The notes below the pieces were generated by a model. That model was not told the DNA's origin, made no database searches, and was given only the letters and a program-made list of their open reading frames with translations. The position numbers and the translations under genes are program-made. From positions 1,331,386-1,395,385 of the forward strand of contig CAJINV010000016.1 in NCBI GenBank assembly GCA_905178155.1: DNA of 64,000 nt. The letters run 5' to 3'. Positions 11,432 to 63,891 of this stretch are shown one piece after another. The stretch is from Amoebophrya sp. A120 (lineage: Eukaryota > Protista > Dinoflagellata). The first letter of the stretch is position 1. Every line of letters starts with the position of its first letter.

Positions 11432-11737
11432 TATGGATGTGTCAGGATCGAAATCGACAAAGTCGAAAAATTTGTGATGCATAAAATGTAGGGCACTGCA
11501 GGCCTGTATTGGGGAGCAGGCAAATGAGACCGATTGTAAGCCTGCTTAGGGGTATGCAATGTGCTGCCAGAGTAGCATGGCGGGAGCAGTCGTCTTTGCC
11601 CAAACAGCGTGACAGACTGGATTTGGGTTCTCCCGAAATTTGTCATGCGCCGCTTGCAAACTGAGGCTCAAACTGGTATCGATTTTATGCATCGCAAGTT
11701 TTTCGATTTTGTCAATTTCGATTCTGACGCCTCCATA
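11432..11737. mobile_element. TIR element, family E (TATGGA..GTCAGGATCGAAAT.GACAAA), TSD agtta
   Basis: Perfect 5-bp direct repeat; inverted homolog of 13336-13644. Confidence 0.92.
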
Positions 11738-15700: not shown

Positions 15701-18700
15701 CATACTGCATGAGAAATACCCCCTCCGCGTAGCAAAACAGTCGACTTCTCTTGCTGCTTACGCAATACAGATGTTTTTAGAATTCAAGGACAGCATGACA
15801 AGTTGCATCTATCCAGACCCAGACATATTTGCATTTGATATGCGCGGAAGCCAGAGCTCGTTCCTTCTCAAAATGCGCCTTTTCGCGCAGTTTCGACGCG
15901 AAGGAGCTGATATGCATTGCAAAAGTATCGTACTAGTATGGATTGCAATACAAATTTCCTCAGCATGGGAAATAAAATTTGTAATGCGGATTTAACTTGA
16001 GAAAGAAATTTGTAATGCATGAATGGGGTTACTACGAGTACGATACTTTTGCACAGGATAGCTGACGGAAGAGGTGGCGGACAACGCTTCTTGCGGCGTT
16101 CCTGCACCGGAGGACGACGAGAGCTTCGCCTTTATGGAAGCGTCAGGTTTGAAATCGTCAAAGTTGAAATGATTTGCCATGCATAAAATGCGATTACAAA
16201 AAGTGACTCTATTGCCGAGGACGCAAGGGAAGCAGATTATAGTCCTGGTAAGGGTCTTCAAAAGTTGGACTGCTAACTAGCATGACAGAAGGCAGCTCTT
16301 TTGCCCTAAACCGCATGACAGACTCCTTTCCAGGACCGAGAAGATTTGTCATGCACCGACTACAAACTGTAGGTCTGACTGGTATCCGTTTTATGCATGG
16401 CAAACTATTTCAACTTTGACGATTTTAAACCTGACGCTTCCATAGCCTTCGCATTAACATTATTCTGCTCTTTGAGTTGATGACGTTTTCCCTCCTTGAT
16501 ATGAACTGCAAAAGTATCGCACTAGTATAAATCGCATGACAAATTAGCTCAGCATGACAAATGGAATTTGTCATGCTGTTTTGCCTTGGGATGAAGATTT
16601 GTAATGCATGACTGCGATTACTACGAGTACGATACTTTTGCACAGGATACTTGATCTCTTTCGACAAAACCGCACTCGACGCGGAGGCGGAGGACCCCAC
16701 GCTGCTGCGACCGGCACTGATGCTAGCGCTGTTATCAAGTGTAAAAATGTCTGGGTCTGGAAGGATGTAACCTGTGATGCGCATTTCAGAACACACAAAA
16801 ATCTCTCATGCATAGCTAGCAAAAGCTGCCCACTTTCTGTCACCAAAATGGGGGATTTGTCATGCGGGTCCGGCATTGCGGAAGCTTCTCGAAACTTGTG
16901 ATGCTAGAGCTTCATGCCAGACCTTCTGTGTCATGCAGAAACAGCATGACTCTTCCAGACCCAGACATTTTTACATTTGATAGCTGTGGCCGCTGTGCAA
17001 GAGACCTGCGGCTTTCGCTGCTTTGTGAAAGGCACGCATATCAAGCACATCCGCGCCGGGTGATGCTGGCATGCTGGGCGGAAAGAAAGGCGAGACTGGC
17101 GTAGAGCTACCCGTAGTACCCGCTGGGGAAGCAGCAGCAGTAGCGGAACCCGAGGATCCACCCGCGGTCGCGGATAGCGTGCTTGCATACGACATCGTCA
17201 GCGCCACCTGGTGCTGGAACAACGCCGCGTGATATCAAATGCAAAAATGTCTGGGTCCGGAAGAATGCAACTTGTGATGCTGCATTTGGATTCCAAAAAA
17301 AATTGTATTGCGTGAGTAGCAAATGCAAAGGGAATGTAATTTTTGCTACGCGGATCAGGCATTTGTCATGCGAAATAGGCTTCAAGAACCCCTCGAAAAA
17401 TCTGTGATGCTACGGCGTGCATCACAGACATCATGGCTCATGCAAAACGTGCATGACAAGTCTGAGAATCTCCCAGACCCAGACATTTTTGCATTTGATA
17501 CGTGAACCGCCAAATCCATTTGCTCCTGAGAAGGCAGCATCATGTGCAAAAGTATCGTACTCGTATTGCAAATAATGCATTACAAATCTTTTCACTATGT
17601 CAAATCCGCATTACAAATTTTATTTCTCATGCTGAGGAAATTTGTAATGCATTCATACGAGTACGATACTTTTGCAGTTCATAGGCAGCATCATGTGGTG
17701 AGGCACTGCAGCTCCTGGGGTCGCGGTTTGTTGTTCTAGAATCGGCGGCAAAGGCAAAGGCAAAGGCGGGGAAATCGGCGGAAAGGTCATCCCAAGTTGG
17801 CCGGGAGTTGTAGTAGTTGCCGCGGCAGCAGCAGCAGCAGTAGCTGCTGCATAATACTGGTCCTCGAAAGAAATGTGTTTTGTCGACGATGAAGATGCAG
17901 CAGTTTTTCCCAGCGCCAATTTTTGCTGCGTGCTGCTACCCTTTGCCTTTCTTGTTTTCCCGCCAGCAACCGGTGACGCGAAGGAGCCAGCGGAGCTGTG
18001 AGGAGACGTGGTGGTTGACGGGTAGTATGCAGCTCCACCAGAAGACATAGTCGTGGAGAACGTCGTTGTATCCGGTCGAGCGGTACTCCTAGTCGTTATG
18101 AGAGTGCACAACTCCCCCTCCCCCTCATTTGTCTGGCATGCACAGCAATACAAGCGTCGGCAAGAATGCAGGTTTTGCATGACAAATTCACCCAGGATTG
18201 TAGTGCTGTTTGAGGTTCCAGAACTTGTCATGCATAAAGTCCCAAGGGGCAAAGAATGGATTTGGAATTTTGCATTACAAATGAGGGGGAGGGGGAGTTG
18301 TGTAGTCTCATAGTCGTGTCCTCACCCGCAGTAGTCGACGGGGTCTGGTCATGATCCGAAGAAGAAGACAGGTCCAGACCCGGCGGAGCGCTGACTTTCT
18401 TATGGGAAGTAGTAGACCCCGTAGGGGTCGTGGTCTTCCGAAACCGAAACGTCGTCACTGCTTGTTTCGTTTCGCCGCTCTGCTCCTCCAGCTCAAAGAA
18501 CTTTTGAGACGAACTACTCGACGTAGAACCTCCTTTGTAATTATTCTTTCCAGCAACAACTACCGGCTCTTGTTGTTCCGCCGTTTCTTTATTACCCTTT
18601 CCCTTCTGCGCGGCAAGCAGGGCGGTTGCGAGTTGATCCATTAAGTGTTTCTCATGCGTCGTGGTTCGGGCTAGTTCCGAACTCGTCCCACGAGAAATTT

Positions 18701-19157
18701 GCTCCGAAGTACAAGAGCCCCCGAACGACGCGACGGCGCCCAAGGAGGAGGACTTCTTGGAGCTCCTGGTGGAATTTTTGTCCTGCTTCGTTGGTTCTTG
18801 TGGCTCTGCTTCTGCCATCGTCGTTGGTTCTACTTTGGGCGTCGACGGGGACATCACAAGCTCTTCCAGAGACAAAACCTGCTTGCGTTGTCCTCCTGTA
18901 GTTCCGCCTTTGTTCATCGCCGACAGGTAACTGTCGTCAGACGACCCGTTACGAGACGAAGCACTCCGCTCCGAATGCCCGGCCACGGTAGGTAAGACGG
19001 CCTGCTCCAACGGCAAAACACGTTTGCGCGGCCCCGCCATCGGAGATGGCAGCCGATTAGAAGCAGCACCGTGGTCTACACGACGGGGAGAGGACGAGGA
19101 GGGCATATTGCAAGACGAACCTTGCGAAAACTGTTGTTGGTGTCTGTATTCTGGCAT
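12709..19157 (-). CDS. Flavin-containing amine oxidase (MAO-like) with ~630-aa Ser/Thr-rich N-terminal extension; 12 exons, ~1,322 aa
   Basis: DIVIVGGGVSGL Rossmann motif, LGGR..LDMGATWVW, and C-terminal RIWFASSEAATEWCGMLEG. Removing 10 TIR introners (+1 TSD each) and one GT-AG intron (13717-13933) gives a 3,969-nt stop-free frame. Confidence 0.85.
13026..13174. mobile_element. TIR introner, family B, TSD gctgg
   Basis: Perfect TSD; join KTAS|KDSG in frame. Confidence 0.93.
13336..13644. mobile_element. TIR introner, family E, TSD gaaaa
   Basis: Perfect TSD; join EGVFF|KNWRR in frame. Confidence 0.93.
15578..15840. mobile_element. TIR introner, family A, TSD tgcgc
   Basis: Perfect TSD; join ASAQ|QKKQ in frame. 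Confidence 0.93.
15911..16060. mobile_element. TIR introner, family B, TSD gctga
   Basis: Perfect TSD; join SSVS|SFASK in frame. Confidence 0.93.
16133..16444. mobile_element. TIR introner, family G (TATGGAAGCGTCAGGTTT.AAATCGTCAAAGTTGAAAT), TSD gcctt
   Basis: ~38-bp near-perfect TIR; perfect TSD; in-frame join NAKA|KLSS. Confidence 0.93.
16500..16649. mobile_element. TIR introner, family B, TSD cttga
   Basis: Perfect TSD; in-frame join KEIK|EGKR. Confidence 0.93.
16733..16982. mobile_element. TIR introner, family A, TSD gctgt
   Basis: Perfect TSD; interior homologous to 58032-58283; join SGHS|ASIS. Confidence 0.93.
17233..17500. mobile_element. TIR introner, family A, TSD cgtga
   Basis: Perfect TSD; join LAVH|AALF. 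Confidence 0.93.
17538..17683. mobile_element. TIR introner, family B (inverted), TSD ggcag extended to a 14-bp repeat
   Basis: ggcagcatcatgtg at 17533-17546 and 17684-17697; left end CAT instead of TAT. Confidence 0.9.
18097..18312. mobile_element. TIR introner, family I (TATGAGA.T.CACAACTCCCCCTCCCCCTCATTTGT), TSD gtcgt
   Basis: ~36-bp TIR; perfect TSD; join EDTT|RSTA. Confidence 0.93.
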
Positions 19158-27797: not shown

Positions 27798-29937
27798 TCA
27801 CGCCCCCACGAAGCCCATGTCCGGGGAAACCATCGTCGATGTGTTCCCTACATCAACGCCTTTCTCATTTTGCCACGCCAATTCCGCGTCCTGCAACCGC
27901 ACCTCGCCGCATCCTTCTTCCAATTTCCCGATGTCAAAAACACTCTCGTTAAATTCGTTTTTCAAAGTCAGTTTCACGTAGTCCACGTCCTCCGGCTTCA
28001 CGAAGATCGCCATCCCAATGCCGATATGCATTGCAAGAGTAATATCGCACTCATTGTAGTAATTTTTGCAGTCATGCATGTCAAAACTCTTTCCGAACCT
28101 GAAACGACATTACAAATTCTATTTCTTCTACTTCAAGTTTTCATCTTCTTTCCGAAATTTGTGATGCTATTTGCACAAAGTGCGATACTTTTGCAATGCA
28201 TATCCGCAATTGAACGTCCGCGCCATTTCCATGGGGTCCAACCCGCCGGAGGAGAACAGCCAGTGCAGAATCGGGGGTAAAGTCCAGTTCGCCGCGGAGA
28301 GTTTCGCGTCAATGTTGTCCGGTAGAATTCTCGGGATGTTCTCCAACAGACCCCCGCCGGTGATGTGCGCCGCGGCCAGAATTTTCTCCTCCTGCATGAG
28401 TTTCAGCAGTTGCTTCACGTAGATTTTTGTCGGTAACAGCAAGTAATCGCCCAGTGACATCAAGGGGTCGAAGGGCGCTGGGTCCTGGAACGTGAACGGT
28501 TTCGCGGTCTCCGGGTTCAAAGTGGAAGACACGATTTTCCGTGCTAACGATAATCCGTTGCTGTGGACGCCGGACGAGCCCAAGCCTAAAATGCAAACCC
28601 CCGGTTTGAGTTCGCTCGTTCTCGGCAGAATCTTACTCCTCTCCACAATCCCGACGGAAAACCCAGCGACGTCGTATTCCCCAGGACTGTACAACCCCGG
28701 CATCTCCGCCGTCTCCCCGCCGATCAATGCGCAGTTCGCCTGCTTACACCCGATATCAAATGTAAAAGTGTCTGGGTTTGGAAAAGTGTAGGCTTGTCAT
28801 GCAGATTTTCCATGGCCCATGAGGTCTGGAGTGCGGGACTTAGCATGACAGACTCTGCGAGGTCTCTGCCATGCCTATCCTGCATGAGAAACTCCCCTCC
28901 AACTTGGTCAGAAGTGTACAGCTTTTGGCACTCATGCAACACAGATTTTCGCATGCTTCAGATTTACCATGACAAGTTGGAATCTTCCAGACCCAGACAT
29001 TTTTGCAATTCATGCCCGATCGTCACCCCCTTGATCACTTCCGTCGCTTGCTCGACGGATAACTTCCCGGTCGCGAATATCCTGAGTAAAAACGTCCCCA
29101 CGCCAGAGTTGTAATGCAGATTTGCAAAGACAGGAAGACTTGTAATGCGCATCCCCATGAGAGCCATTTCCAATCGTGTTTTGGAATTTGTGATGCTGTG
29201 AACAGGATGAGCAGATGAATCTGCGATGCGGCTGCACTTGCTGACCTGCACTACACTGCGGAGTGCAACTTGTCATGCGTGACTCACAAAACTCCTAGGT
29301 TTGTGTTGCAAAATCCCCATCCTGACTCTGGTGTGGGGACGTTTTTACTCAGGATAGCGAAGTAATCTAGGAAATACAGCGGTTCCGCACCGTGAACCAA
29401 GCAGTCGTTGACACACATCGCGACCAAATCAATGCCGATCGTGCCGTGCTTGTTCAGATTGTTCGCGATGAGTAACTTCGTCCCCACCCCATCCGTCCCG
29501 GAAACTAGGACTGGGTCCTTGTAGTTCACCGATTTCAAATCGCAGAAGCCGCCAAAGGATAATTCCTTGCCGAATTCGCAGCCCGGTCTTGCCTATCAAA
29601 TGTAAAAATGTCTGGGTCTGGAAGAATTCATGTTTGTCATGTTTGTCTGGCATGACTCTTAAATCTGTCATGCACGTTACGCAAGAGCTCCGCTTTTCAT
29701 TTTCTGTGATGCAGGAACGCAGTTTGTCATGCAGAATAGGCAACACCTAGAAGCTCAGAAACTTGTCATGCTGAGCCAGCATTTGTGGCCTCCCCATCAT
29801 GCGCCACCCAGCATCACAAGTTTCCAGACCCAGACATTTTTACATTTGATATTGCCGTCTGCTTCAAAAACGGTTTGATGTTTTCAACCAACGCATTCCC
29901 GGCGTCGATATCGACCCCCGCCGCTTTGTAGGTCAAT
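27798..29937 (-). CDS. purM: AIR synthetase domain of the fusion
   Basis: [61 protein letters not shown] (after splicing). Confidence 0.96.
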
Positions 29938-32900
29938 TTCTGTTGCTGATTCGCACCGGAACTGCTAGAAGAAGCTCCAGAGGAGCTACTTCCGCAAGAT
30001 GGTGTGATGAACCGGTGCTGCCTCGTGCCCATGGCAGCGATATCGGACCGGTAGAAAGCGTTTTCGAATTGCACTTGCTCCACCCCGAGATACGCGAGTT
30101 TGATAGCATGTTCTAAAGTGCGGCCAAGAGCAGAAACGGCTAAAACCCTGCCGCCGGACGTCACAGTCTCCGTGTTCTTCTGCTTGTTCTGGTGGGTGTT
30201 CACAGAAGAGGAAAATGTGGTCGGAGACGCGTTGGGACTGGTGTTGCTCTGTTTCGAGTTTTCCCGGCTAACCGCGGCTTCCGATGCCGTGGTGGAAGCG
30301 GAGCCGGAAGTAGATCCATTCGACGTTGACACCACTTTCGTCCCGGCATGGAAGGTCCAGATGGACGGCATCGACGTCAACTTCTCCAACCCGGAAATCG
30401 TTTTGTTTTTCTCGTAACTATTCGGATACCCGCCGGACGCGACGACAACGGACACGCAGTACCCCTTCGCAACCACCAACGCCGCCTGATCCAGGCGTCC
30501 CTGGCAGCAGAGAACCAACGCCTGGTAGAAATCCCCTTCTAATAGCGGCATCATATCGCAAGGAAAAATCCTCCCTCCCCATATTGAAGGGGTAGGCTTT
30601 CGAAAATTTGTGTTGCTGATTTGAGGTCACAAATCACGTTTGTGTTGCAAGAAGACAAGGGCAGCAGCTTCCGTCCCATTATGGAGGCGGTTTGTCATGC
30701 TGTTGAGCCAACATCACGGACGCTTCTCATGCTAAGCGCCTAAGTCAAAGCATCTCTGCTCAGGCTTGATATGGGTCTGCAGTCCACTCTAGCAAGACAG
30801 ATGTGATTTGTGTACTCAAATACAGCAACACAAATTCCGCTTTCGCTATGGGGAGGGGGGATTTTTCCTCACAATACATCACCGCCTGCGTTTCCGGATC
30901 CCCGAATCGGCAGTTGTAATATCCCGTGCAAAAGTATCGTACTCGTAGTAATTGCGTTTATGCATTACAAATCCGATTCTCAAGGTAAACCAGCATTACA
31001 AATGCAATTTGTAATGCTGGGGGAATTTGTAATGCGATTTATACTAGTACGATACTTTTCCAGTTCATATGTACTCCAAGACGTTGATAACCGTTTTGCT
31101 TTCGTCCTGCAAATCCCCCGACAACATCAAGCCCGCGAACAAAACCCCTACAAACGGCCTCCCCTCCTCCCGCATCCCGTCGACGCAGGGGGTTAAGCAG
31201 GTCTGTTTAATCCGCTCTAATAAACCCGAAGAGATGTCGTTCACGGGCGCAAACGCCCCCATGCCGCCAGTGTTCGGCCCCTCGTCGTTGTCGAAGGCGC
31301 GCTTGTGATCCTGCGCTAATGGTAAGATTTTGATGTTTTTGCCATCGGAGAGAGCTAGGACTGATAATTCCCTTCCCGGCAGCATCTTCTCCACCACGAC
31401 TTCTTCCCCCGCAGAGCCGAAATCGTTCTTCATCAACATCCCAGTCAGCGCCTCCTTCGCCTCCTCAACTGATTTCGGCACGATCGCTCCCTTCCCCGCG
31501 GCTAGGCCAGATGCCTTCACTACTACTGGCCAGTGTTTGTCGATGTAGTTCTTCCCGTGTTCCAGACCTTCTTCTCCTTCTTTCCGTCGGAAAATCTCGT
31601 ATTCCGCTGTTGGAATGTATGCAATGCAAATTTTCCGCACATGTACAAAATGCATGACAAATTCCGCCACTTTGGAGTTTCCAAGAACTTCATCTGAACT
31701 TGTCAAGCTAACGAAGAATGTTGAGGGAAAGTTTTGTGATGCAGAAACAGCATCTTTACTGGACAATCGGCGCAGCTGATGAAAAATTTCGTCCGGATTT
31801 CGTCCGTTTTTTTGATATTTTTTTTGAAAATTTTTTTTTTGCCCCTTTGGAGGCAGCCGGCTTTGTGCCCTCTCCAGCATCTATTAGCGCAGTGGGGCGT
31901 GCTCTGGGCCTGAATGTTCCCGGCCCTCGCTCCCTAACCCACGGCCACACCGCGGGCGTCGGCAGGATGTTTCGCGCGGCTCTTCACTCGATCACAGCCG
32001 CTAGATCACAGGTCGCCGGACCTTAGGCGCCCAAGAGCTTGCCGCAGCCTGCTCACGCATCCTCTCGAAGAGGCCCAAAAGCCTGCCATTGCCTAGGGCT
32101 TTTCATGTGGGTGCCCATGCAGTGGCCCCTCATTGCTTTGAGAAGGCGGCGCCGCATCTTTTGAGAAGGAAGCGACAAGCGATCAGCCCCCGGCCTTTGT
32201 CTGTGGGTGGGTTGGTGGGTTCGCGCCTTCACAAATCGGGGGGTTTTCTTCTAGCAAAGACGGACAACAAAGACGAAGGCCAAAAATAGCTTTTTTTTTG
32301 TTTCCGAAATATCTTTTTTTTGGCTTCCGAAATATCTTTTTTTCGTCTCCCAAAATATCTCCGGATTTTCCCGAAATATCTCCGCGAGCGACGAGGAAAG
32401 CAAAAAAAACTATCTCAAAAGTTATTTTAGCGCCGATGCTATGGAGATATTTCGGGAGATATTTCTGGAAATATTCCGAGATACTTCCGCGGAGCTTTCC
32501 GCGACACTTTCTGGCCAAAAAGGCGTCGCCCAAAATATCTTTTTTCGGCTTCCGAAAATATCTTTTTTTGGCTTCCCAAAATATCTTTTTTCGGCTCTTC
32601 AAAATAGCTTTTTCCTTCTAGACCTTTTGGTCTGCGGATAAGGAGGGGGAAAAAGAGGGACAATCAAGATGCCCGAGGCGGCTACTTAGGGCTCCGTCAG
32701 GGTGCGCGCAGCAGGTGCGTGCCCAATGTTGCGTTGCCCTCAGGGTATCAGCGGCGCCCACCTAGGCGGGACGCCCGCTCGCAGGGCCGGCGCGGGCAAC
32801 TTAAAAACCGCTAGGGAGAATGGGGGCCGGGGCGTGACACCTAGAGCTCGCGCAGCATAGTGCAGGGAAGCAGCGCGCAGCGTGTCATGCCGCCTGTGCC

Positions 32901-35900
32901 TTAGGACGCCGCGCAATCGCGCGGGCTCTATGCGCTAGAACAGGCGATGCGCCTCGCGGGGAATACCGCCGCCGCGCCAAGCAAAGGCTCCCCGGCTTTG
33001 GCAGGGCGGGCGTGCAGCATTTTATCGAAGCAAAATTTTTTTTTGAAAAAAAAAATCTTAAAAAAATCGGAGATAATTTCAGATTGGGTCCCATCGCCAT
33101 CCAGGAGCGCCCGTGATAACGTTTACGTGTACGGGAAAAACTCTGGATAGAATGTTCCACCGCTTCATGAAATCTTTCGACCACGCTTTGGATTCCTCGA
33201 GTATCACGCCCTTCTTCGTCGGACCGAAAACTAGGATTTTCTCTTTCGTCAATGAATCCGTAATGCCATCAACCAAAGGTTGCTCCGGGCCAACGACGAC
33301 CAAAGAGATTTGCTTTTGCTTGCAGAAATCCCGCAATTCCTGGAAGTCGGTTTTGCTGTTGATCGGAACATCAGATCCTACGTTGAGAATCTTCCGACCG
33401 CTTCCTCCGTTCCCCGGAATGACATAAACCTTCTTCACCTGCTTCGACTGGGACAAGCGCCAGGCTAAAGCGTGCTCCCTCCCTCCAGACCCAATCACCA
33501 CCACCTGCTCCCGCTCCGACCCGCGGGTCGAGTAAGACCTTGTCTGCCTCCCCTCGTAGAAGTTCACGAACGCTTGCAAACTACATCTAATCCCCCCAAT
33601 CGTCGGGAAATCGCCGGTAAAGACCCAATCGCCGGTCGAGTCCGGAATCGCGCGGCGCATGCCCTCGACCGTTTGGTACAGCATGGTGACTGGCGTTTTG
33701 ATATCCTTGTCCGTGACGAGTTCCGCGATCTTCGCGGATATTTCCTCTTCGCTAAACGGAGAATAAATGTCCTTCACGTGATTGTAAAAGCTGCCGCCGG
33801 AAATCTGTTGTTGGTAAAAGCTGCTGTTTTGATTGTAGATCTCCTCTTCAGTCGACCGGAGCGTCTCGACGCATTTCCGGTAGGTTTCCTCCAAAACGTG
33901 CTCCATTTTCTTATCTTTCAACAGTTCCACTGCCGCCCGGAACGCGACTAGATTGTCCAGTCTGCTCATGTCAATCCCGTAGCAATCCGGGAACCGGATT
34001 TGCGGTGCGGAAGACACGAATAAAATCCTCTTCGGCTGCAACGCGTCTAATCTCGGGATCATCGACATCTTCAGCGTAGTCCCGCGGACAATACTATCGT
34101 CGATCGTCACTAAAGTCGTCTCCCCCCGTTTCACGATCCCCGGCGTCATCTCATACGCGGTAGATGCGAGTTGACACCTGCCCTCGTCTTTGCTGATGAA
34201 CGTTCGGAGCTTCGCGTCCTTGAAAATCAGTTTTTCCACCGGGATCTGGCACTGCTGTCGTTGGTTGATGGAATTGGAGCTGTTTGTCGCATTCGATGCT
34301 GTGTTGCTCGAGAAGTTGAACCCGAATTCCGCGTTGGTTGGACTAGAAGACTTCATCCGCTGCCAGATCAAGTTGTTAATCTCGATCGACAAACCGGTCA
34401 AAGCGATTTCGGCCGTGTTGGGAACGAAATTCAAAACCGAAGTTTCCCAGCAGTTCGCGATGGAGTCCAGGACCGGCGCGGCTAGCTCCCGACCGAGAGC
34501 GAGCCGCTCTCTGTAGATGTCCGGGTCGTTGGCCCTTGAAAAGTAGATTCTTTCAAAGACGCACTTTCTTGGAGTTTCCGGTTGCAAAATGCAGCGCTCG
34601 ATGGGGAGAGAATTCTGCTCGTTGGCTTTTAGGAGAAGCTTACGCACGGACCGCCCGTGATCAGAGGGGGTCTGGAAATGCCTCAGGAATGCTCCAGGAA
34701 TCTGCTCAGAAATGTCCCGACTTTGCATATATCGCCGCGCATCGGAGTCATCGCCTTGGTCGCATTTATACGTCGCACATCACTGATGCGCGACACGATG
34801 GGCACGCCATAGCAGCGGAATGACGGGCCACGGGAATTATCTGCGCCGTCCTGGACGACCTACATTGGCGGACCGCCGGCCGGCGCGAAGATTGGGCGCG
34901 GGCAATAGATATAGACCCAAAACCACAGACCCGGCGAACCCCCGGGGCGCGCGCCCTACGCCACCACGCTGCAAAACTGAAGCGCATGCCGCTCGCGTCA
35001 CACGCGTGACACGATGGCGCCACGGTTCGGAAAAACGGGGAGCGCCCCTCGGAGGGTGTTGCGCGCTGGTTAGGACAAAGGTGGTCGCCCAGCGCGCAAA
35101 GCTGGTGGCCGGCTGGCAATCCGTGCGACGGCTGGTGGCCGGCTGACAGGGCGCGCATGCGAGCGCGCGGCCCACACAGTGCGGCCCGCCCGTCCGAGCA
35201 CGCGCCGCGGCCTGCGTCTGTTGCGCGGGCCGTGTTTCCTAGTTTCTTTCTGCGAAAATACAAACCAGCGCGCCGGCGCGCCTTTGCTTGTGCGCTTGTA
35301 AGAAACACGCCAAGCAGGTTTCCTTGGGGAAAACCGAGAGGGGCCCTGGCTTCTTCCCCCCAATACGATTTCCCTGAAGAAAGAAAAACCGGGCCCAACC
35401 CTCCCCAGGCCCCCCAATCGGCGGCCTTGCCTTGGGTGCCCAGCTAGGTAGCGCGCCGGGCCAGCGGCCTGCCCCTGCAAAGGCACACACCGGGCCGCCT
35501 ACCATCAAAGCAGTGCGGTAGGTGTCGCCGGCCAAGGTCGCACGCGACAGCTGCGGCGCGCGAAGCTTCTACAAACATCCTGAGCCCGGCGGCCGGGCCG
35601 GCCGGGCTTCCACAGCCCTACTCTTTACCCGCAAAAACCTGCACAACCCTGCGCCGGACTCTCCGCCCGCCACAGTTCTTCGCCCCTTCGTTCGCTGCGT
35701 GCTCACTGGCCGCGCCCAAATCCCGAAGAACTGCCCGAAGCGCCGGCCGCCCATTCCGGCCCCCCTCCGTCGGACCGGCCGACAGTATTCACGTGCCCAG
35801 TCTTAGCAATCGGCCTGGGCGTGCTCTGCAGGACATCCATCCGAGATATCAAAAGCGCGAGGAGCGCTCTGGGCCTGCTCTGTAGATCACTCCGCAACTG

Positions 35901-38900
35901 CTCTGGAGATGCCGCGGCCTTGCAACATAACACCGGAAAAGACGGCAATACTGCCGCGCCGCGGATCTTCTTCGCAGTTTCGCAGAAATTTTGAGCCTTT
36001 GCAGCCTTCACGCAAAGGCATCTTTTTCACAGGGTCGGACTCGTTCGCCACGGCGCAACGGCCCGCGCCCGAGATCGGTCGCATCAATCTCGGACGGATT
36101 TGCCATCGGTTCCCTTACTCTCGGGTCGCTGTGGCGATCGTTATGAACTTGATCCGCGCGGCAATTCTTGCCGAATATATGAGACGAATGAGGGGCATCC
36201 TGAAAAGCTGAAAAAAAACCAGCAAGGGCACTGCGAAACCCGCAAAAAAGCAACACCAGAAAAAGCCGAAACGCGGAAAACCGTGGCGCCATTTCTGCTA
36301 TTGGGGAAAAAATTTCGCGGCTTTTGCATTTTTCTCCTTCAGAAAAAAACCTGAAAGCTTTTGCATTTTTTTCCTTCAGGGAAAAACCTAAAAAAGTTCG
36401 CGCGATTTTCTTCTAGAAAAAACCCAAAAAAGCTGCGCGCGATTTTCTATTACAAAAAAACCAAAAAAGTTGCGCGCGATTTTCTATTACAAAAAAACCC
36501 AAAAAGCTGCGCGCGATTTTCTAAAGGCCAGAAATGTGAAAAATCGCCGGCCTGATCGGCCTCATGCCATCGGGGAAAGGCAGAGAAAATGGCCCGTCTT
36601 CGGTTTTGGTTTTTTTCGAGGGGGGATTCCCGCGCAACTTTTTTGGGTTTCTTTTTTTGTAGTAGAAAATCGCGCGCAACTTTTTTGGTTTTTTTGTAGT
36701 AGAAAATCGCGCGCAGCTTTTTTGGTTTTTTTGTAATAGAAAATCGCGCGAACTTTTTTAGGTTTTTCCCTGAAGGAAAAAAATGCAAAAGCTCTCAGGT
36801 TTTTTCCCCAAAGAAAAAAATGCGAAGGCCTCGGCATTTTTCCTCCCTTTACAGAAATGCGGCACCCGGCAGCGCGTGTGGCTTCGCTTTGGCCTTTTTT
36901 TTTGCCTACTTTCTTGGCCCGGTCCTTTCAATTTTCTTCGCTTCATTCGCGATCTTTTTACTACCGTAGCCCGATTCAGATTCACCATGATTCTGATTCT
37001 CATTCGCGACGTTTCTGATTCTGATTCACAACATGTGGCCTCCACAAGCCAAATAGCTTACAACATGTGGCCTCCACAAGCCAAATAGAGTTTTGCTCTA
37101 CGCAATATCCACAAAGGGCCAGCTGTAATCGGGGCGCTGAAGCTCCTCAACGCTCATCATCGTCGGACTCTGGGTCTTGGGGCCGCGCTCGCGAACTCCG
37201 GCGGCTGCTGCTTCATCCGGCTGCTGGCCGCCGCTCTCGTTGGTGAAGGAGTGCCTAAGTCGTGCCGAGGGAGAGGAGCGGCGCCACACATGGCGCCAGT
37301 GGCTGCGCCAATGAGTTCAGCAGCCCCATTAACTTCATACGTTTCGGCTTTGCCTAGAAGCCGCTGCAACGCCTTCGCCGGCACTTGCATCCAAGCAAGG
37401 CCAACACGGCCCGCGCGGGGGCGCCTGCCTGGTTGTCGGCCGGCGGCCGGTCCGGCTGGCAGAAGCCAGGAAGGGCTCGCGGGCTGAGGCAGGCCCTCGC
37501 CCCAGGTCCAAGACTGCCTTGGATGCCAATCATAGACGCACACACGTGGCAGTCCCCTGGGCTTTGGCGGTAGAAGCGAAGGGAAACTGACTGAAGCAAT
37601 TCTGCTTGCCACCAAACCACCCAAGACCAGCAAGAGACGAGAAAAAACGAAGCCGGGTCCGCCCGTGTCACGCGCGTGACACGGTGGCCCTGTCTGTGAT
37701 CTAGAGAAGCAGGGCAGCATCCCCCTCGCGCCAAGGGGCGCGCCTGCGCGTGCGAAAGCAATGCGCCACGACAATGGGCTGACGAGGCGCCCGGCTGTGG
37801 CCAAGCGGCGCCGGCAGGCGGCCAACCAATGGGAGGCCGGCAGTTGGTTGCTTGCCCTCCCGGGTGAGGCCGGCCGTGCCTGCCGCCCACAAGGGAGGAG
37901 GGCCAGAATAGCAGTCCGCCGCGCAGAAAGCAAGGCCGGGCCCGTGCCTGGCTGCCACAGAAACAAAGAAAGGAACAGCGGCAAGGCCAGCACACTGCCT
38001 TCTTACAGAGGCAGCCCCGCTGAAGGTCCCAACCTGTCAGAGCAGGCACTGAACCGCCGGGGCGGCGGAAATGCAGGGGCAGACGGGGCGCCTGCAATGC
38101 TTCGAACCGGGCTGCGGACAAGACGCCGGCGCGCCTGCGACAAAACGAAAGCGGGCACAGATAGGCCCGACACAAGTGTGGCGCTGCGGCACTTCGCGTC
38201 CATATATGCAAGGGGAGGCCGGCAAAGGGATAAGGGGCAAACGGGCGGCGCCCGAACGTCAACGCCAGCCGCGGCCCGCATTGCGCGCCACAAAAATGCG
38301 CCAAATACGGCAGCGGGCGCCGCGTCTCGAGGAAGCTGCTTTGCGATGGCCCGGCTCGACGCCTTGTGTGCCCCTCTTCCCTGCAACCACAATGAGGGGC
38401 GCCGGCGTTGTGGGAATTGCCTCCGCCTTACATTCCCGAGGCCATTTCTGAGACATTTTTAAAGATGGCGGGATCACGGGCGTGGCAGTGCATAAGAAGC
38501 GCGTGCCCGGGGGTTAGCTCGTGGATTTCCGCATGGTCTTTCACCTGATGTTGTCATGCGGAGGAAAGTAATCGCACAATGTTGATCAGAGCGTGATCGA
38601 GTTTGACTTTCAACATCAAGAAGTGAGACCTGGAAAAACAAAGGTCTGTCATGCAGCTACTCAGCGCGACCAGTTGTCATGTTGATGTTTAGCATAAGTA
38701 GCAGAAGCTGCACTCTAATCTACCTGAAAAGCGCTCGCAATGACCCCTCGTTCGCTCGCCACCACGATGAATTCCTCGTCCATCCAGTAGAAACACGGCC
38801 GGATCTATCCACAAGGAACTGACCATCCCCATCCAATTTGTCATGCGCCACATGTATGAAGTCCTGTGTTTGTCATGCCTAAAATGCACGAGGATGCTTG

Positions 38901-41900
38901 TTTTTTCCTGGATAGGATCCCGTGCCTATCCCGAATTGCGAACGCATCTCCCGTCCCAAGCGTCCCGACCATCGCAAACCCGCCATCCCAGTCCTTCGCT
39001 GCTTCCTGTAAGACGAACCCTAAGTCCAAATTCTCCTCCACCAGCTCCTGACACTTCTTCGCGACATGTCCCTGCGAGCTAAAGTTCACGTACCTTCTGT
39101 TGTGCTCCGCGTCCAGCTCCTGTCCGATGATCTCCAGGCAGGTCACCGTGTCGGATTTCGCCCGTGGGTGCTGGCCGGACTCGACCAAACGGTCGAACAA
39201 GTAGTCGGAATTCGTCAAATTGAAGTTCCCGGCCAGTAGCGCGCATTTGCTCCGCCAATTGGATTCGCGCAAAAAGGGGTGTAGTTGGTCAATGGAGTGA
39301 GAACCGAAAGTCCCGTACCGCACGTGTCCCAAATACAACTCACCTACGAATGACTTCTGCGACTCCGGCACCGTGGTTTCGAACAGATGTTCAATCGCGT
39401 TTTTGTCGCAGGATTTGCACACATCGACGTATGGTTCCCCCGGATCCGCGTCGGTTCTCACACAGGCAATCCCCGCGCCGTCCTGTCCCCGGTTCCGTTG
39501 CTTCTCGAGCATGACATACATCAAATCCACCCCGACCTTGCTGTCGATGCCGTACTTTTTCTGGTAGTACTCCTGCGGCTTCCGTAGTTTGATCATCGCG
39601 ATCCCGCACTCGTTATGAACTGCAAAAGTATCGCACTCGTATAAATGCATTTGATTTCCATTTCCTCAGCATGAGAAATAAAATTTGTAATGCTGATCTG
39701 CCTCAAGAAAAAGATTTGTAACGCATGATTGCAATACGAGTACGATACTTTTGCACAGGATACTCGTGTTTGGGCCGGTCGTCCGCGATTTCCGTTGTGG
39801 ATTTCCCGATTTGATAAGGAGCCGCTTCAGAATCGGTGGTGGGTTCCTTCGTGGAGATGGAGGAAGCGGGCTGTTTGGAAGAAGATTTGGAAGCTATTCC
39901 CTGCTCCCCCGCGACGATACTAGCCACCGTTTCCACACCGAGGTCCGAACAGCACTTAATCACCTGGATCAAGGCTTTCCGCTCCAATGCTTGGACTTTG
40001 TCCCGGACTGTGACACAAGTATCCTTCTCCGGATCGATCCCCGAAGCGATTTTTTGCAGAATCACCGGCCCCTCGTCATACCCCCCGTTCGTGACAAAAT
40101 GCACCGTGCAGCCGGATTCGGTTCTTTTATTGTCCAAAACGGCTTGGTGCACGTGATCGCCGTACATGCCCTTCCCGCCGAACTCGGGGAGCAAACTCGG
40201 GTGCACGTTGATCACTTTGTTCTGAAGTTGTTCGGGAATGAGGAATTTGCACATGTAGCCGGCGAGGACGATCAAGTCGACTTGGTAGTTGGAATTGAGG
40301 ATTTCGATCACGTCTTGCGACATTTTTTCCCATTTATCCTCATCTGTAGCATTTCCTTTGTACTTCCTGCTCTCCACAACATGGACCGGAATCCCAGCTT
40401 TCTCCGCCCGTTGAATTCCCTTCGCGTCTTTCCGCGAAGCGATGACGACGGAAACGGAGCAGGAGGGAAGGGTTTTGTCTTCGATTTTGTCCAAAATGTT
40501 TTGCAAGGTAGTACCAGAACCGGAGAGGAGGACAGCCATGCGGAGGATCGGAGGTGCCGCAACTGCAACTTGCGCATCTACGTCAGAAATTTCGTCCGCT
40601 TTCTCGTAGAATCGCTTGATCGAAGTTGTGGTTGCTAGTCTTCCAGTCGCAATCGCACCGTTCTCCGACTCCGGACTGGTGGCAATCAAACCGGCCTTTT
40701 TCGTCGGAGATGGGATCTCCGAATCCGAGATGATCTGCAGCAGCGATTTTTTCTCACAACCAGCCTCCGCTTTCCTCGTTTTCAAAGCCCACTCGTAAGC
40801 GTTCCGGAACAACTTCACCCACGGTGTGTAGCTCACGTTTTCATTCACCTCGGACGCGATGGTCGGCATGCCGCCACAGTTGTTGATCGGAACCTGCCAG
40901 GAGATGAAGCTCCTCTCCGGGTGCGGCATGAAGGCCAAATGCCGGCCGTCGGAAGAGAGAACACCAGCAACCCCGTTTTTCGACCCATTCGGGTTCATCG
41001 GGTACGTCTCCGTCGGCTTCCCCTCGTCGTCCACATAGGAGAAACACGGCTTGCACTTCTCACCAACAGCGTTGCCCTCCTGTTCAATCTCAAACTGCCC
41101 TTCCCCGTGGGAAATCCAAACTCCTAAAACCGAATCAGTCAGCCCGTCTAACCAAACAGAGTTCGTCTTCGTTGTTTCCTCCGGTGCGTCTTCTTGGAAA
41201 GAGCATTTCACCGAGCAAAACCGGGACTCGAACCGGCCGGATTTGTTGTGCTTCAGTTTTACCCCCTGCCCGAGCCAATCCAGTTGGCTCATGAGTTGGC
41301 ACCCGTTGCAAATTCCCAGGGAAAACGTGTCGGGTCTGGATTTGAACAAATCAAACTGCTTCTTCAACGCTTCATCACAGTTGATTTTCATCGCCCAGCC
41401 GGTAGCGGAACCGAGCGTGTCCGCGAAAGAAAAACCGCCGACGAAAATCACACCCTGAAACCGGTTCAGTTGAATCTTTCCGGATTGCAGATCAGACATG
41501 GTGACGTCCCACGGCTCAAAACCGACTGCGGATAAAGCCCAGGACATCTCCCGTTCCCCGTTGGAACCTTCTTCGCGCAGAACAGCGACGGGGATTTTCG
41601 GCGATTCGTCGGTTGATTTCTTCAAAAAGTCGAAATCCAACTTCTCAAAGTTATCAATTTTGAACTTCGGTCCGGTTCTCGTCAGCAATCCCATCCTTTC
41701 CTCTTCCACACAGGTTTTCTCGCACTGCTGCTTCTCCAACTCGAACGAAGTGGACTCCCAGGTGTCGCGGAGTTGGCGCATGGAGGTTGCGGGGAGCAGC
41801 TCCTGTTCGCGCGTCGTTTTAACGATGATCACGTCGTCCTCTAATGTTCTTCCAACCGTGACGGCGTTCAATGCGTCAATGACTTCAAACGCGTCTTCGT

Positions 41901-44900
41901 CGTCAACTTCGAGGAGTAGACCGGGTGCTTCGGAAAACAGGAAACCGAGGGCCTGATGAGATGACGATGAATTTGATGTATCTATTTATATTTTTGCATT
42001 TCAACGAGCATTCTGACTTCAAGCATGCTTACTACACAACACTGCAAGAGAAATCATGCACCCGCATCTTCAATTCCAAATCTTACCTCCGATTCTGAGC
42101 AATTCACACTCACGTCCGCCCCGAAGTTCCCCGCGAAACACATCTCCAGCAAACAGGTCAAAAACCCACCGTCGGAAATGTCGTGGACGGAAAGAATTTT
42201 GTCAAACACCTTGTCCGTCTGGAAAATTTCAAAAACCTTCTTCAACTTCTCCAAATCCACATCGCACGCCCCGCAAACGTTCCAGTCGTAGACCTGCGCG
42301 AGCGCCGTCCCGGCCAACTTCCACTTCATTTCCCCCTTCACCAAAGGGGAACTGGAATCGATTCTCTCCATCCCGAGATCCACAAAGAGAATCCGTGACC
42401 CCGCCTTCTTGAACTCCGGCGTAATCTTTCTCCGCACGTCCGGCACCTTCGCGTAGCAGGTTAAGACCACCTCCCCCGGGCACTTCACGACGCCGTTGGT
42501 TTTCGTTCGCGTCGCCATGGATAACGAGTCCTTCCCGCCGTCGATTGCGAGGCCCAGGTACTCGATAGAGCTGCACAGGGCCTCACACACGTCGTACATT
42601 CGCGCCCCTTCGCCGGGAAACTTCGCCGGCCACATCCAATTCCCACTTGCGCGGACGTTGTCTAACCCACCTTCAATCTGTACGCCGATGAGATTCAAAA
42701 CTGCCTCCGCAACAGTGAGTTTCGCCTGCTTCTGGAGGTCGGAAATGGTCCCGGAAAGACCTTTTAGCGGCTGCTCCCCGATCGAAACCGCAGCGCCGTC
42801 CGTCGTTAACGGGGAATGCGCCACGACCGCACAATCCGCGAGAGGTGTGTATGGCGTTCTCAACTGTTACATAATTCTCAACTATTACATAAATTTGTGA
42901 TGCAAGAATGGCAAAAGTGAAAGGGGTGACCTTGCGCGTCTTGCATGACAGATTCGGCCCAGATTCTCAGCCTGTTTGGCTCTTCGAGAATTTGATGTCA
43001 TGCAAAGCAGCTTGATCGTGTCAATTCTGAGTGTAATTTTGCATGACAAAAAATCGTGTAACAGTTGAGAATGTAACATTTGAGAACGCCATAGTGTGTG
43101 CAGGGGTCCAACGCATTGCTGTTGCGCGACTAAGCCGGTGACGGAGCGGTCGACTTTGTTGGTTAAGAACCTCTTCGACCCGACGGAAATCAAGCGTAAA
43201 ATGCGATCCAACGCCGCTCCGACGGAAGCGGTTGGGGAGGGTTTGACCGTGATGTTTTCACCAGATGAATCCTTCTCCGCCAACTCCGCCGCCAGGGACT
43301 TCGCTGGCACATCCGTCGGCGGCGTGCCGCAGAAGGGGAGCGGGGGTTGCAGACTGTCGATCGGGTAGGGGAATCGCGGTTTGATCCGGTCGGAGACAAA
43401 AGTTTTCTGCGGCATCTTCCCCAAAACCGCTTCTAATGGTAAATCCACGATTTTCTCCTCCCCGTAGTGGACCACGATTTTTCCATCCCCCGTGATTTCC
43501 CCGACACAAGAGAAGGACAATTGCTCCCGTTTACAGATCTTTTCAAACAAATCCAGATTTTTGCTGTCTATCAACAACGCGTCGTTCTCCTGGAATTCCG
43601 CGACCCACAGCTCCAACGCCGTCATGGTGTTGTCGCCGATCAACATTTTGTCCAACTGGATCTTCGCCCCAGCTGGGTACGCGATTTCCTTCAAAACGTT
43701 CCCAGATCCCCCCGCGCCCTGGTCGTGGATGGACAAAATCGGATTTTTCTCCCCCAATTCCAAGCACGCCCGGATCACACACTCGCACTTCCGCGCCATC
43801 TCTGCGTCAGCTCGTTGCACCGCGTTGAAATCCAGCTCGGCTTTGTTGTCGCCCGCCACCATGGAGCTGGCCGCGCCACCGCCAACCCCGATCCGGTACG
43901 CCGGGCCGCCGATTTTGATGATCAGGTTCCCCGGTGCTGGCTCGTGTTTTTTCACGTGCCGGTGGAGCATCCGGCCCAAACCGCCGGAAAACATAATCGG
44001 TTTGATCCACTCGACGCGCTCGGTTGTGGGTTTATTTCCCCCAACATCTTCTTCTGAAGCAGGACTTTCGACGATCGATCCGTAACTCCTGGTAAACCCC
44101 GCAACCAGTGGTTCGCCGAACTTGTTCCCGTAGTCCGATGCGCCATTCGAGGCGGAGACCAAAATGTCCAGCGGTTTCGCCATGTTTTCCGGGTAAAGCG
44201 GCTCGTTTTTCGACGTTTTATCGGAGATTGACAATTCGCTACACTTTTCCAACACTTCCTTTTCCCACACACAACCGGCGTAATTCTCCGTCTTCGGGAG
44301 ATCTAAATTCCCCACACAGTACCCCGCAATCCCCGCTTGCACGTACGCGCCGCAGCCCGTCGAGTGGTTGTCCCGGATCCGCCCGCCTGACCCCGTTTCC
44401 GCACCGGGAAGAGGGGCGATCCCGCAGGGGAAGTTGTGCGTCTCCGCGGTGAGGGTGATGTCTAAATCCTGTTCGGTCAATTTGTAGTATCCAAAGCAAA
44501 TTTCCCGTACGCACCACACAAATCGAAATCAATGCGGTCTCCGCATGACAAAATTTGCCTTCAATCCTACTCAGCATGACAGACAGCGAACTCTAAGTTA
44601 GCCAAGTTGTCATGCAATTTGAAAGAGTACAGGAAATTTGTATTGCATATGTACGGAGCGGAGATCATCCCGTTTCCTCCCAGCGGCAGGGGGATTTTCA
44701 CCTTCGCACCCCGCTGCGCGGAACTGTTGTCTTCGAACGCGATGGTGGAGCAATCGAGTTCCTCGTTTTTTTGCTTCAATTTGTACGCGTTTTTCACGAT
44801 TTGGAACAAAGTTTTCTCCTTCTCAATACCGTCAATCATCATTTTCCCGCCGAAAAACCAATGTCGACTGTGCTCCGAATTCCCCTGCGCCAGGTCGAAG

Positions 44901-45733
44901 AGCTCGATGTCGGTCGGGTCCCGTTTCAGATTCTCGGTGTACAAGCTGTAGTAGTAGGAGAGGTCGTTCTCGTCAAAACCAAGGGACTGTTCCTCGGAGA
45001 AAGCTTTCAAAACGGCGATCCCGGCATCCTTTGTACCCGCGGAGAGGACCCGGATGGATTTGACACCGGAGGAAGATGTGGAGGGGGTTGTGGTGTCAGA
45101 GTCGGTCGTCGCTTCAGAAGACGAGCTGGAGAACAGCGTAGCAGCAGCATCTTTGTCCTCAAACTCGTACACACATTCTGTCATGCGGTCGTGGACCAAG
45201 GACTCGAAAAATTTCTTCGCTGCAGCACCATCGCCAGCGCTTGAGGTCTCTGGTGCCTTCACCAGAAACCGTTTCGTCACTTCGATCCGCTCCACATCTG
45301 CTAGCCCGCACCCCTTCGCAATGCTCACCGAGTGCGTGCTCTGCGCGGAGGTGAATTGTTGCCGCGGCCCAACTTCGACGAGTATCCAGGAAAAAACACC
45401 CGTCGCCATCCAATTTGTCATGCATAACACGCATAAAATCCAGTCTTTGTCATGCATAAAATGGATGGGGACGATGGGTTTCTTTCTGCGAATAACGAGG
45501 AAGCTGCTCGTACTACTTCCACTGTTCTTTATCGAAGTTCCTGCACAGTTTGTGATTTGTAGGATTTTGTTCAAAATGTCGTTCGTTTCGTCAATGCCCA
45601 AAACGTGGTAACAGAGTTCAGATTCCAAAATTTCAAATCCGGCGGTGGAGACGGCGTTCTTCTGGGCGAAAGAAATAGGCGGTGCTTCGGCTTTGCGAAA
45701 CAGCTTCAGGGACTTCTTGATGTGCTCCACCAT
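27798..45733 (-). CDS. Pentafunctional de novo purine biosynthesis protein FGAMS-GART-GPAT-GARS-AIRS (PurL-PurN-PurF-PurD-PurM), 16 exons, ~3,314 aa
   Basis: Removing 13 TIR introners (+1 TSD each) and 2 GT-AG introns (41953-42086, 38545-38723) gives a 9,945-nt frame from ATG 45733 to TGA 27798. PurL-PurN, PurF-PurD and PurD-PurM are each joined within single stop-free exons; PurN-PurF join in frame across 39614-39762. Confidence 0.88.
28025..28202. mobile_element. TIR introner, family B, degenerate TSD gccga/tccgc
   Basis: Removal plus 5 nt gives the conserved FNCG|IGM. Confidence 0.9.
28754..29014. mobile_element. TIR introner, family A (right end ATG), TSD cccga
   Basis: Join TIG|[16 protein letters not shown]. 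Confidence 0.92.
29078..29356. mobile_element. TIR introner, family C (TATCCTGAGTAAAAACGT.CCCAC.CCAGAGT), TSD gcgaa
   Basis: 279 bp; near-identical copy at 56645-56923; join DYFA|TGKL. Confidence 0.95.
29594..29851. mobile_element. TIR introner, family A, TSD ttgcc
   Basis: Perfect ~30-bp TIR and TSD; join QTA|RPGC. Confidence 0.94.
30035..33510 (-). CDS. purD: GAR synthetase domain of the fusion
   Basis: [66 protein letters not shown] (after splicing), TSGGRVL. Confidence 0.96.
30554..30876. mobile_element. TIR introner, family D (TAT...AAAAATCC.CCCTCCCCATA), TSD catca
   Basis: Homologous to 53554-53875; join QAVM|PLLE. Confidence 0.93.
30920..31069. mobile_element. TIR introner, family B (inverted), TSD tgtaa/tgtac
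   Basis: Splits the PurD signature LEY|NCRFGDPE. Confidence 0.93.
31618..33149. mobile_element. 1.5-kb composite introner (family J-like ends) with a nested insertion, TSD gaatg
   Basis: Perfect TSD; join RWNI|PTAEY. Interior ~31760-33105 has degenerate T-tract/A-tract inverted arms, GC-rich blocks and tandem TTTTTCGGCTTCCGAAAATATC units (32285-32615). Confidence 0.9.
33545..39608 (-). CDS. purF: Amidophosphoribosyltransferase (Ntn glutamine amidotransferase + PRTase) domain of the fusion
   Basis: KHE|[66 protein letters not shown]. Confidence 0.95.
36300..36850. repeat. Long foldback palindrome built from ~30-bp tandem A-tract/CGCGCG units
   Basis: 36359-36411 is the reverse complement of 36739-36790 (the same peptide [17 protein letters not shown] appears on both strands); centre ~36575. 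Confidence 0.9.
37030..37088 (+). repeat. Tandem duplication of caacatgtggcctccacaagccaaatag
   Basis: Two adjacent identical copies. Confidence 0.85.
38806..38914. mobile_element. Short TIR introner, family H (109 bp), TSD ggatc
   Basis: Join RHGI|RPCFY; homologous to 45383-45494. Confidence 0.92.
39614..39762. mobile_element. TIR introner, family B, TSD ctcgt, immediately before the PurF catalytic Cys codon
   Basis: Perfect TSD; join PKHE|CGIA. Confidence 0.94.
39955..40545 (-). CDS. purN: GAR transformylase domain of the fusion
   Basis: [55 protein letters not shown]. Confidence 0.95.
40790..45733 (-). CDS. purL: FGAM synthetase domain (large-type PurL with glutaminase) of the fusion
   Basis: [78 protein letters not shown]. 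Confidence 0.96.
42850..43093. mobile_element. TIR introner, family K (TATGGCGTTCTCAA.TGTTACA), TSD gtgtg
   Basis: Join GPLHT|PLADC (conserved FGAMS motif). Confidence 0.94.
44488..44649. mobile_element. TIR introner, family J (TAT.CAA..CAAATTTCC.GTAC), TSD tgtag/tgtac
   Basis: Join SAPY|KLTEQ leading into AETHNFP. Confidence 0.9.
45383..45494. mobile_element. Short TIR introner, family H (112 bp), TSD acgag
   Basis: Join SFLV|EVGPR; element+TSD is 117 nt and stop-free, so it is hidden inside ORF 44567-45742. Confidence 0.9.
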
Positions 45734-63149: not shown

Positions 63150-63891
63150 TTACCCCGCCTGCGCGGTCGAGCTCGAAATCTCCGACAAATTCGATCCTTG
63201 TTTCCGGAAGGATTTCTGCCTGACACTCGTCAACCAAAATCCAAAGGACCAGGTCGCGACGTAATCCTCCCCCGCGACCTTCCAGTTCCTCTTGCACACG
63301 ATGAACGCCGACTCGTGTAACACCTCCGAGACAAACGTGTGCACGAGTTGCAGATTCGAGATGTTCCGGAGCTCCTTTTCGGAGAGCGAGTTCGGATTCA
63401 AATTTGAGGTTGCTGGTTTCTTCAAAGTATTATCGGTTTGCTGTTGAACAACCGCAGTTAGTGGCGATTTCATCACGCTTGTAGTTTTATTCCCGACAGA
63501 AGTCCGCAACACCTCGAGCTCCAGCTGTTGGCTCAAGCGGGAGAGAAATTCCGCTTTCGGTAAAATCTTGTTGTCGCACTTACACGCCGCCGCCGCGTGG
63601 TAGATCGCGGAAATGCCGACGAACAAGCCCCGGACGTCTTTTGGGAGTTTGCTGTCTTCAATCGCTTGCTTGATGATTTTCGCCCAATCGTGGAGCATCT
63701 CGGTGGTTATGAACTGCAAATAAAGTATCGCATTCGTATAATAAATGCAATTTCCTTAGCATGAGAAATAAAATTTGTAATGCTGATTCACCTTGTAATG
63801 CAAGACTTGGTTATTTTATACGAGTGCGATACTTTTGCAATGCATAGTGGTGACGGTGGAGCAGTGCTTGTCCCAGACAGGATTGCAGAGA
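63150..63891 (-). CDS. 3' part of a hypothetical protein gene extending beyond the window
   Basis: ORF 63150-63719 joins an upstream exon (WDKHCSTVT|TEMLHDW) across introner 63708-63846; probable AG acceptor near 63892. Confidence 0.55.
63708..63846. mobile_element. TIR introner, family B, TSD gtggt
   Basis: Perfect TSD; interior similar to 13026-13174. Confidence 0.92.

Follow-up and report, generated by a model that had tools for sequence, protein, structure and literature searches.

Transposon-like introner elements of Amoebophrya sp. A120 occur in both orientations within single genes and are probably removed at a junction set by transcription

We examined a 64,000-nucleotide stretch of DNA (the window; positions 1,331,386 to 1,395,385 of contig CAJINV010000016.1, forward strand) for short elements that start with TAT, end with ATA and interrupt genes in either orientation. 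Mapping of window exons onto deposited proteins assigned both host genes to Amoebophrya sp. A120, on the minus strand; Amoebophrya is an algal parasite. The two genes are listed here, the Pur names being labels we give to Pfam domains found in the purine gene.

27801..45733, minus strand: purine gene, a PurL-PurN-PurF-PurD-PurM fusion, model of 3314 aa with 15 introns (exon-by-exon mapping of P0001, CAD7969535.1; Pfam; A25 orthologue)
12712..19157, minus strand: 'oxidase' gene, model of 1322 aa with 11 introns and a NAD_binding_8 (FAD/NAD-binding) domain (exon-by-exon mapping of P0121, CAD7969533.1; Pfam)

The five-enzyme fusion (3314 aa) covers the first five steps of purine synthesis and has an identical layout in A25; no further protein with all five domains was seen among the 120 matches listed, and a literature search on the fusion found none.

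By scan and inspection, 33 elements with TAT...ATA ends, inverted repeats and a flanking 5-bp repeat were found in the window, two of them with one changed end base; strict pairings of TAT..ATA with the repeat numbered 24, versus 0-1 per shuffle in 10 shuffles. Both ends read TAT-N7-AAA, the A run being missing in a minority of families. Each element is about 60-75% self-complementary, and its interior still shows its orientation clearly. Families are lettered B, D and E in keeping with an earlier note on this DNA, D being the label given here to the TATCAAATG group.

39614..39762: family B, orientation 1, repeat CTCGT; splits PurF at HE|CGI
30920..31069: family B, orientation 2; splits PurD at VLEY|NCRFG; repeat imperfect, with the upstream base 1 retained (Glu)
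17538..17683: family B, orientation 2, oxidase gene; 3' end in the transcript ATG instead of ATA, flank-like
13026..13174: family B, orientation 1, oxidase gene
16500..16649: family B, orientation 1, oxidase gene
15911..16060: family B, orientation 1, oxidase gene
63708..63846: family B-like, orientation 1, in another reading frame
28025..28202: distant relative of family B, orientation 2, purine gene; repeat imperfect, with the upstream base 1 retained (Cys of FNCG)
29594..29851: family D, PurM, one orientation
28754..29014: family D, PurM, opposite to 29594; 5' end in the transcript CAT
15578..15840: family D, oxidase gene, opposite to 16733 and 17233
16733..16982: family D, oxidase gene
17233..17500: family D, oxidase gene
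13336..13644: family E, oxidase gene
16133..16444: family E, oxidase gene, opposite to 13336
11432..11737: family E, outside the oxidase coding model
18097..18312: element of another family, oxidase gene
29078..29356: element, PurM; 96% identical to 56645-56923
30554..30876: element, PurD
31618..33149: 1.5-kb element, purine gene; family-10 end plus a large insert, ends poorly paired; the model drops element plus 5 nt
38806..38914: element, PurF
42850..43093: element, PurL
44488..44649: element, PurL; imperfect repeat (synonymous)
45383..45494: element, PurL

At 17538-17683 the two changes at one end match the far flank and make a 14-nt direct repeat, which local conversion or chance could have produced.

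The earlier note had claimed that copies of one family are removed in both orientations within one gene, and this held for family B. In the purine gene, 39614-39762 aligned with 30920-31069 at 79% (score 162) when reverse-complemented versus 73% (score 78) the same way round, and the pair shares one gene because the purine gene is a single five-enzyme fusion; in the oxidase gene, 17538-17683 was inverted relative to 13026-13174 (85%) and to 16500-16649 (81%). Each pair lies within a single deposited model (P0001; P0121), from which exactly the element plus 5 nt is omitted at every site. The family E pair cited in the same place, 11432-11737 and 13336-13644, is indeed inverted (85%), but not within one gene, since the oxidase model stops at 12712, about 1 kb short of 11432; the valid within-gene pair is 16133-16444 versus 13336-13644 (69%). 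Family D, absent from that account, is also inserted both ways in both genes (28754 versus 29594; 15578 versus 16733 and 17233).

Removal is judged throughout from deposited models, the A25 orthologue and frame logic, not from reads; the A120 gene models were produced with a transcriptome-based pipeline. At 12 elements the purine model lacks the element plus 5 nt, with no gap at those sites in the A25 orthologue; the oxidase model leaves out the same length at 10 elements. The PurF HE|CGI and PurD VLEY|NCRFGD motifs run uninterrupted in the A25 orthologue, and retention of the elements would disrupt both. A further insert in PurF, a GC-rich 3.86-kb segment (34633-38493) of a differing element type, is likewise dropped from the model; it has imperfect inverted ends of about 60 bp and a 7-bp flanking repeat matching at 6/7, the upstream copy being kept, and its three long frames gave no match in Pfam.

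A larger sample of at least 132 loci (478 kb) was drawn from metagenome contigs, which may not be the same strain as A120, by means of a pattern that is identical at both family B ends and hence blind to orientation. Detection yielded 447 distinct elements, of which 419 lie in the loci and 28 in the window and 207 belong to family B; 340 kb of shuffled sequence gave 1 false match, and 74 element-like stretches were missed. The direct repeat was 5 bp, perfect in 294 of 384 elements with a strong repeat, and never 6-9 nt. A coding model was trained on window exons and restoration of frame was scored after removing the element plus 4, 5 or 6 nt: element plus 5 restored the frame in 118 of 419 locus elements, versus 1 for plus 4 and 4 for plus 6, and in 21 of 28 window elements, the latter figure not being independent of the training. 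These 118 and 21 form the strict coding set (n=139, not counting six elements whose flanks were short). A retained element would add a stop or break the frame in 134/139, and all three codon phases are occupied (35/42/62).

Orientation within coding frames was balanced. Family B gave 31:30 (29:28 in the loci alone), and 39:44 after 38 looser calls were added (controls 8 and 6) and one duplicate removed; two family D clusters gave 7:9 and 6:5, and smaller families 0:5, 1:5, 1:5 and 5:3, none of them significant. Conventional splice sites were scarce: GT/GC/GA-AG could be placed in some equivalent register in 19/139 copies and in none in 120/139 (86%), and for family B in 3/31 and 3/30 by orientation. 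The 5' and 3' arms diverged alike from family consensus (92/1849 versus 94/1870), and no polar conservation of the arms was seen in that comparison. Because orientation is balanced, the arms diverge equally and GT-AG is rarely placeable, removal is independent of element polarity, which bears out the earlier view that internal polar signals do not define it. Of cryptic canonical sites within 9 nt of the ends, none was in frame at 30920 or 17538, and those at 39614, 13026 and 16500 would gain or lose residues relative to the deposited models. The further step taken in that note, that use of both orientations speaks against a spliceosome, did not survive: since an inverted repeat presents identical 5' and 3' motifs either way, two-way insertion does not exclude one, as in Aureococcus and Polarella.

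Two further readings of the ends were tried and set aside. A U12-like reading of RTATCC(TT) allows AT-AC in 12/139 only, with C or G about equally frequent at +5, and U11/U12 are reported absent; for a CAG acceptor one base further on, base 6 is random.

The earlier note had defined removal by a symmetric terminal stem together with the direct repeat. The symmetric ends stand; the perfect repeat does not, and selection for RNA pairing was not demonstrated. Because 30/139 coding copies (22%) have imperfect repeats, at the rate of non-coding copies (mismatch 5.2% coding versus 6.4% non-coding), exact matching of the repeat is not needed. Unequal copies were in turn used to tell which copy reaches the mRNA. 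The strict set holds 36 repeat mismatches, 20 residue-changing and 16 synonymous, and most of the 20 are not assignable to one copy; the synonymous share of 16/36 is consistent with one copy being free (expected 0.40-0.45). Strong coding constraint on both copies was also considered, and was rejected for omega <=0.25.

Six register cases were assignable, one from the window list and one from a looser listing, with both family B orientations included. In 5/5 cases with tool support the upstream copy is kept, at bases 1-4: base 1 at window 30920 (Glu) and window 28025 (Cys of FNCG), base 2 at sample locus L047, where the downstream copy would give a stop, base 3 at L055 (Pro of PRYATLP) and bases 3-4 at L055 (Val of PLAV). 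At base 5 the downstream copy is favoured in one case, L039, where a 44% homologue (P0124) reads MKAA; no long topoisomerase II model across the L039 junction was found at E 1e-60 among proteins of 805-2295 aa. Loci L029, L038, L046 and L064 lean upstream by eye or recall only and were excluded from the count; look-ups in the PDB gave gene names for L046 and L047, with alignments that stop short of the variable residue. Most simply, these repeats point to a cut that falls, reading along the transcript, between bases 4 and 5, which would leave bases 1-4 on the 5' exon. The symmetry ascribed to removal in the earlier note does not appear to extend to the junction, which, judging from imperfect repeats, is polar relative to transcription. 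We consider it very probable that removal occurs at the RNA level, at a fixed register that follows transcription.

This polarity bears on an excision at the DNA level in the expressed nucleus, like that of ciliate internal eliminated sequences (IESs). Ciliates are fellow alveolates, and their IESs are transposon-derived, blind to orientation and leave one copy of the flanking repeat behind, in a DNA-level process involving two kinds of nucleus; indifference to orientation, transposon anatomy and one retained repeat copy would all be expected from such a process in A120. However, the kept copy follows transcription through base 4 and the bias at bases 4-5 described below is sense-specific, and since a symmetric DNA cut cannot know the direction of transcription, both are hard to reconcile with it. 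Paramecium IESs keep TA and other ciliate IESs keep matching pointers, whereas A120 keeps a variable 5-mer with transcription polarity, imperfect in 22% of repeats, and both TAT ends are lost with no TA retained; the likeness to TA-bounded IESs drawn in the earlier note falls on this point. The elements are, moreover, present in the assembly itself, Amoebophrya is not known to separate its germline and soma into different nuclei, and a literature search on programmed DNA elimination in this genus found none. We regard excision from DNA as very improbable.

The elements might also not be removed in vivo, the junctions arising by template switching of reverse transcriptase across the hairpin and repeat, or the ribosome hopping over them. 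Both events classically take place at a hairpin with a short repeat. The published junctions do derive from short-read cDNA. Against this, the purine gene is intact and 68% identical to A25 despite 12 elements and the 3.86-kb insert, repeat mutations lie in the copy that spares conserved residues, and the elements sit in all three codon phases. An absence of removal seems to us hardly credible.

The bases on either side of the proposed cut appear not to be random. The combinations C|A and G|G at base 4|base 5, which in the proposed register correspond to introns A..C or G..G, were counted 38 times where phase-matched flanks predict 21.7 (p 3e-4; p 0.012 for the 4x4 table as a whole), with an excess in both family B orientations. 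No such bias was seen at the other three registers, for the mirror-image pair or in non-coding copies (27 versus 22.4). A..C and G..G are the two first/last intron base pairs accepted by the spliceosome. In Table S4 of Farhat et al. (PMC7789003) the commonest non-canonical donors of A120 are GT, CT, AT and TT, and these NT donors match what the base 4|5 register predicts. TCAGG stands as a repeat at either end of two GT-AG introns (13717-13933 and 38545-38723), which also contain the element-typical internal motif. An alignment of the first of these introns with family 10 (69% over 107 nt, E 9e-5), together with a repeat placed in that register, suggests a decayed element turned canonical GT-AG intron.

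We next weighed the stem. Strong hairpins are predicted in both orientations (z -5.4 and -6.8; mean -54.0 versus -53.8 kcal/mol), as would suit a non-spliceosomal cut-and-join like that proposed for Euglena, in which an endonuclease would measure from the terminal stem (1 base on the 5' side, 4 on the 3' side) and a ligase would join the exons. The 120/139 coding copies without GT/GC/GA-AG in any register and the dispensable A at -2 also fit this, and Euglena needs pairing of the inverted repeats and has unequal spacers (3 nt versus 5-6 nt). In the sense strand, raw counts of G.U exceeded A.C (130:93, p 0.016); however, the excess was not significant against family consensus (76:60 versus interior 288:292, Fisher p 0.22) and was missing in the window (38:40). 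Further against such an enzyme, only 25/139 copies show full pairing at stem positions 4-7, the arms of coding copies are no better conserved than those of non-coding ones, and the 1.5-kb element is likewise removed despite its poorly paired ends. Pairing that extended past the stem into the two repeat copies was no more frequent than chance (31/139). Nor does the Euglena pyrimidine|purine rule hold: enrichment is confined to C|A and does not extend to C|G, T|A or T|G, and purine at base 5 (90 versus 79 expected, p 0.07) reveals no general rule. Differences between arms were few at positions 11-14, the A run, relative to positions 15-28, both in coding copies (6/227 versus 74/622) and in non-coding ones (6/130 versus 49/344), which suggests that the run is read as a motif. 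On this evidence a hairpin cut-and-join is a distinct but lesser possibility.

We favour, at about an even chance, RNA-level removal by a relaxed machine of spliceosome type that is guided by the symmetric end motif and the stem. The junction would lie one base upstream of the 5' TAT and four bases downstream of the 3' ATA, giving in either orientation a predicted intron N-UAU-(G/C)...UUU-N7-AUA-NNNN. In this scheme the invariant UAU would fill +2 to +4 of the 5' splice site, the terminal stem would stand in for U1 and the normal 3' signal by drawing the two ends close, and the outermost intron bases would come together in a site like that of the spliceosome, where A..C or G..G is preferred but not required. 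A120 is reported to keep nearly all spliceosomal proteins together with U2/U4/U5/U6, with U1 not detected and U11/U12 absent. More tentatively, and with somewhat less confidence than we place in the RNA machine as such, the A120 splicing machine may have no need of U1, GT, AG or a polar branch signal, in which case the ends that bind a transposase would make a ready-made intron either way round.

Several points weigh against this proposal. The register is based on six cases, with one case each for bases 4 and 5, and a cut placed one base in by element polarity is still conceivable if family B is taken by itself. The first/last bias was found post hoc, after a scan of 143 dinucleotide pairs; it covers 38/139 copies (27%), is driven by A..C (26 versus 10.6) with G..G weak (21 versus 16; 2 versus 3.0 in the relaxed set), and falls to p 0.03 under a permutation that keeps composition. 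The A at -2 is not needed (15/47 versus 36/130), an indifference unlike the branch-A contact of the yeast structure, and no branch point was identified. The donors of Table S4 may reflect the choice of an aligner among equivalent positions, and no further decayed GT-AG copies were found among the 74 stretches missed by the detector. End motifs are conserved in copies called non-coding too, which the needs of a transposase could explain. The stem (positions 8-20) forms in 124/139 folds and the sense strand folds slightly better (78/139, p 0.009), both of which suit a hairpin enzyme equally.

Other features were noted in the window and loci. At 1879-3395 lies a 1.5-kb element with a perfect 28-bp inverted repeat, a 5-bp repeat and internal repeats. 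Family D copies at 58032-58283 and 54253-54570 have outer ends typical of family B, which suggests swapping of ends or a shared transposase. On the minus strand at 46851-59373 there are two long open frames, of 2315 aa (five elements removed) and 1350 aa, whose scanned exons had no Pfam match. Rfam gave 0 matches in the window, and the family B end pattern 0 matches in viral contigs. Loci L037 and L039 hold a gene judged by eye to be topoisomerase II-like, which is extended at length at its C-terminus (weak HMG-box match) and contains at least 10 elements, and at L055:1252-4659 an ETF-beta gene is split by many elements into exons of 20-50 codons.

The elements are miniature inverted-repeat DNA transposons (MITEs): they have terminal inverted repeats, a target duplication of fixed length (5 bp), no coding capacity and many copies. 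Judged by sequence, they are also the published introner elements of A120, which Farhat et al. (2021, PMC7789003) describe as having a TAT inverted repeat, seven variable bases, at least 3 A, a direct repeat of 3-5 nt and a hairpin, with support from RNA-seq, the mechanism left open and no cognate transposase reported. Organism, host match, TAT-N7-AAA ends, repeat length range and membership of a repeated family all agree. A120 carries about 30,000 such elements. To that description we add the strictly 5-bp repeat, the 50:50 orientation, the proposed fixed register and the first/last base bias. In the main text and supplement passages of that paper (PMC7789003) all 4 mentions of 'orientation' concern gene order and 'strand' occurs 0 times; a literature search that reached no figures and few subscription papers likewise turned up nothing on element orientation, the register or first/last bases in Amoebophrya.

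Introns inserted in either orientation are reported for Aureococcus anophagefferens (second-hand) and for Polarella glacialis classes 2, 3, 6, 7, 8 and 10 in bioRxiv 2020.10.14.339549. These too are introns from DNA transposons with a target duplication, functional in both orientations; by the same account they recruit GT/GC/GA and AG from element or repeat and show a strand bias, whereas 86% of the copies here lack sites of this kind and family B of A120 shows no bias. The nonconventional introns of Euglena (PMC12501133; PMC11282704) have a CAG/CTG motif, are followed by exons that begin with a purine and yield circular intron RNA. They share with the A120 elements the lack of GT-AG, inverted-repeat ends, a MITE-like origin, unequal cut spacing and removal from RNA (here probable), but the A120 ends are TAT/ATA with an A-tract and do not follow the N3-CDG...CHG-N5-6|R code. 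For Fritillaria borealis, PMC13326754 describes transposon-derived non-GT-AG introns genome-wide and invokes an adapted spliceosome with non-Watson-Crick first/last pairs; those introns keep preferred termini and U1, whereas A120 termini come from random target sequence and U1 was not detected. Most A120 elements lack the canonical U2 termini GT/GC/GA-AG, and the marks of U12 introns are missing too. The elements in A120 and two-way introners elsewhere are thus already known; what is new here is unbiased orientation without GT-AG, the register and the end preference.

The genome paper leaves open by what route most introns of Amoebophrya are removed, and the new constraints narrow the mechanism to two options. 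If the more tentative reading holds, each insertion of these families would be erased from the mRNA, which would account for the tolerance of tens of thousands of insertions; if the machine is indeed a spliceosome, this would show the extent to which sequence rules can be lost, and how a host renders a transposon family harmless to its genes.

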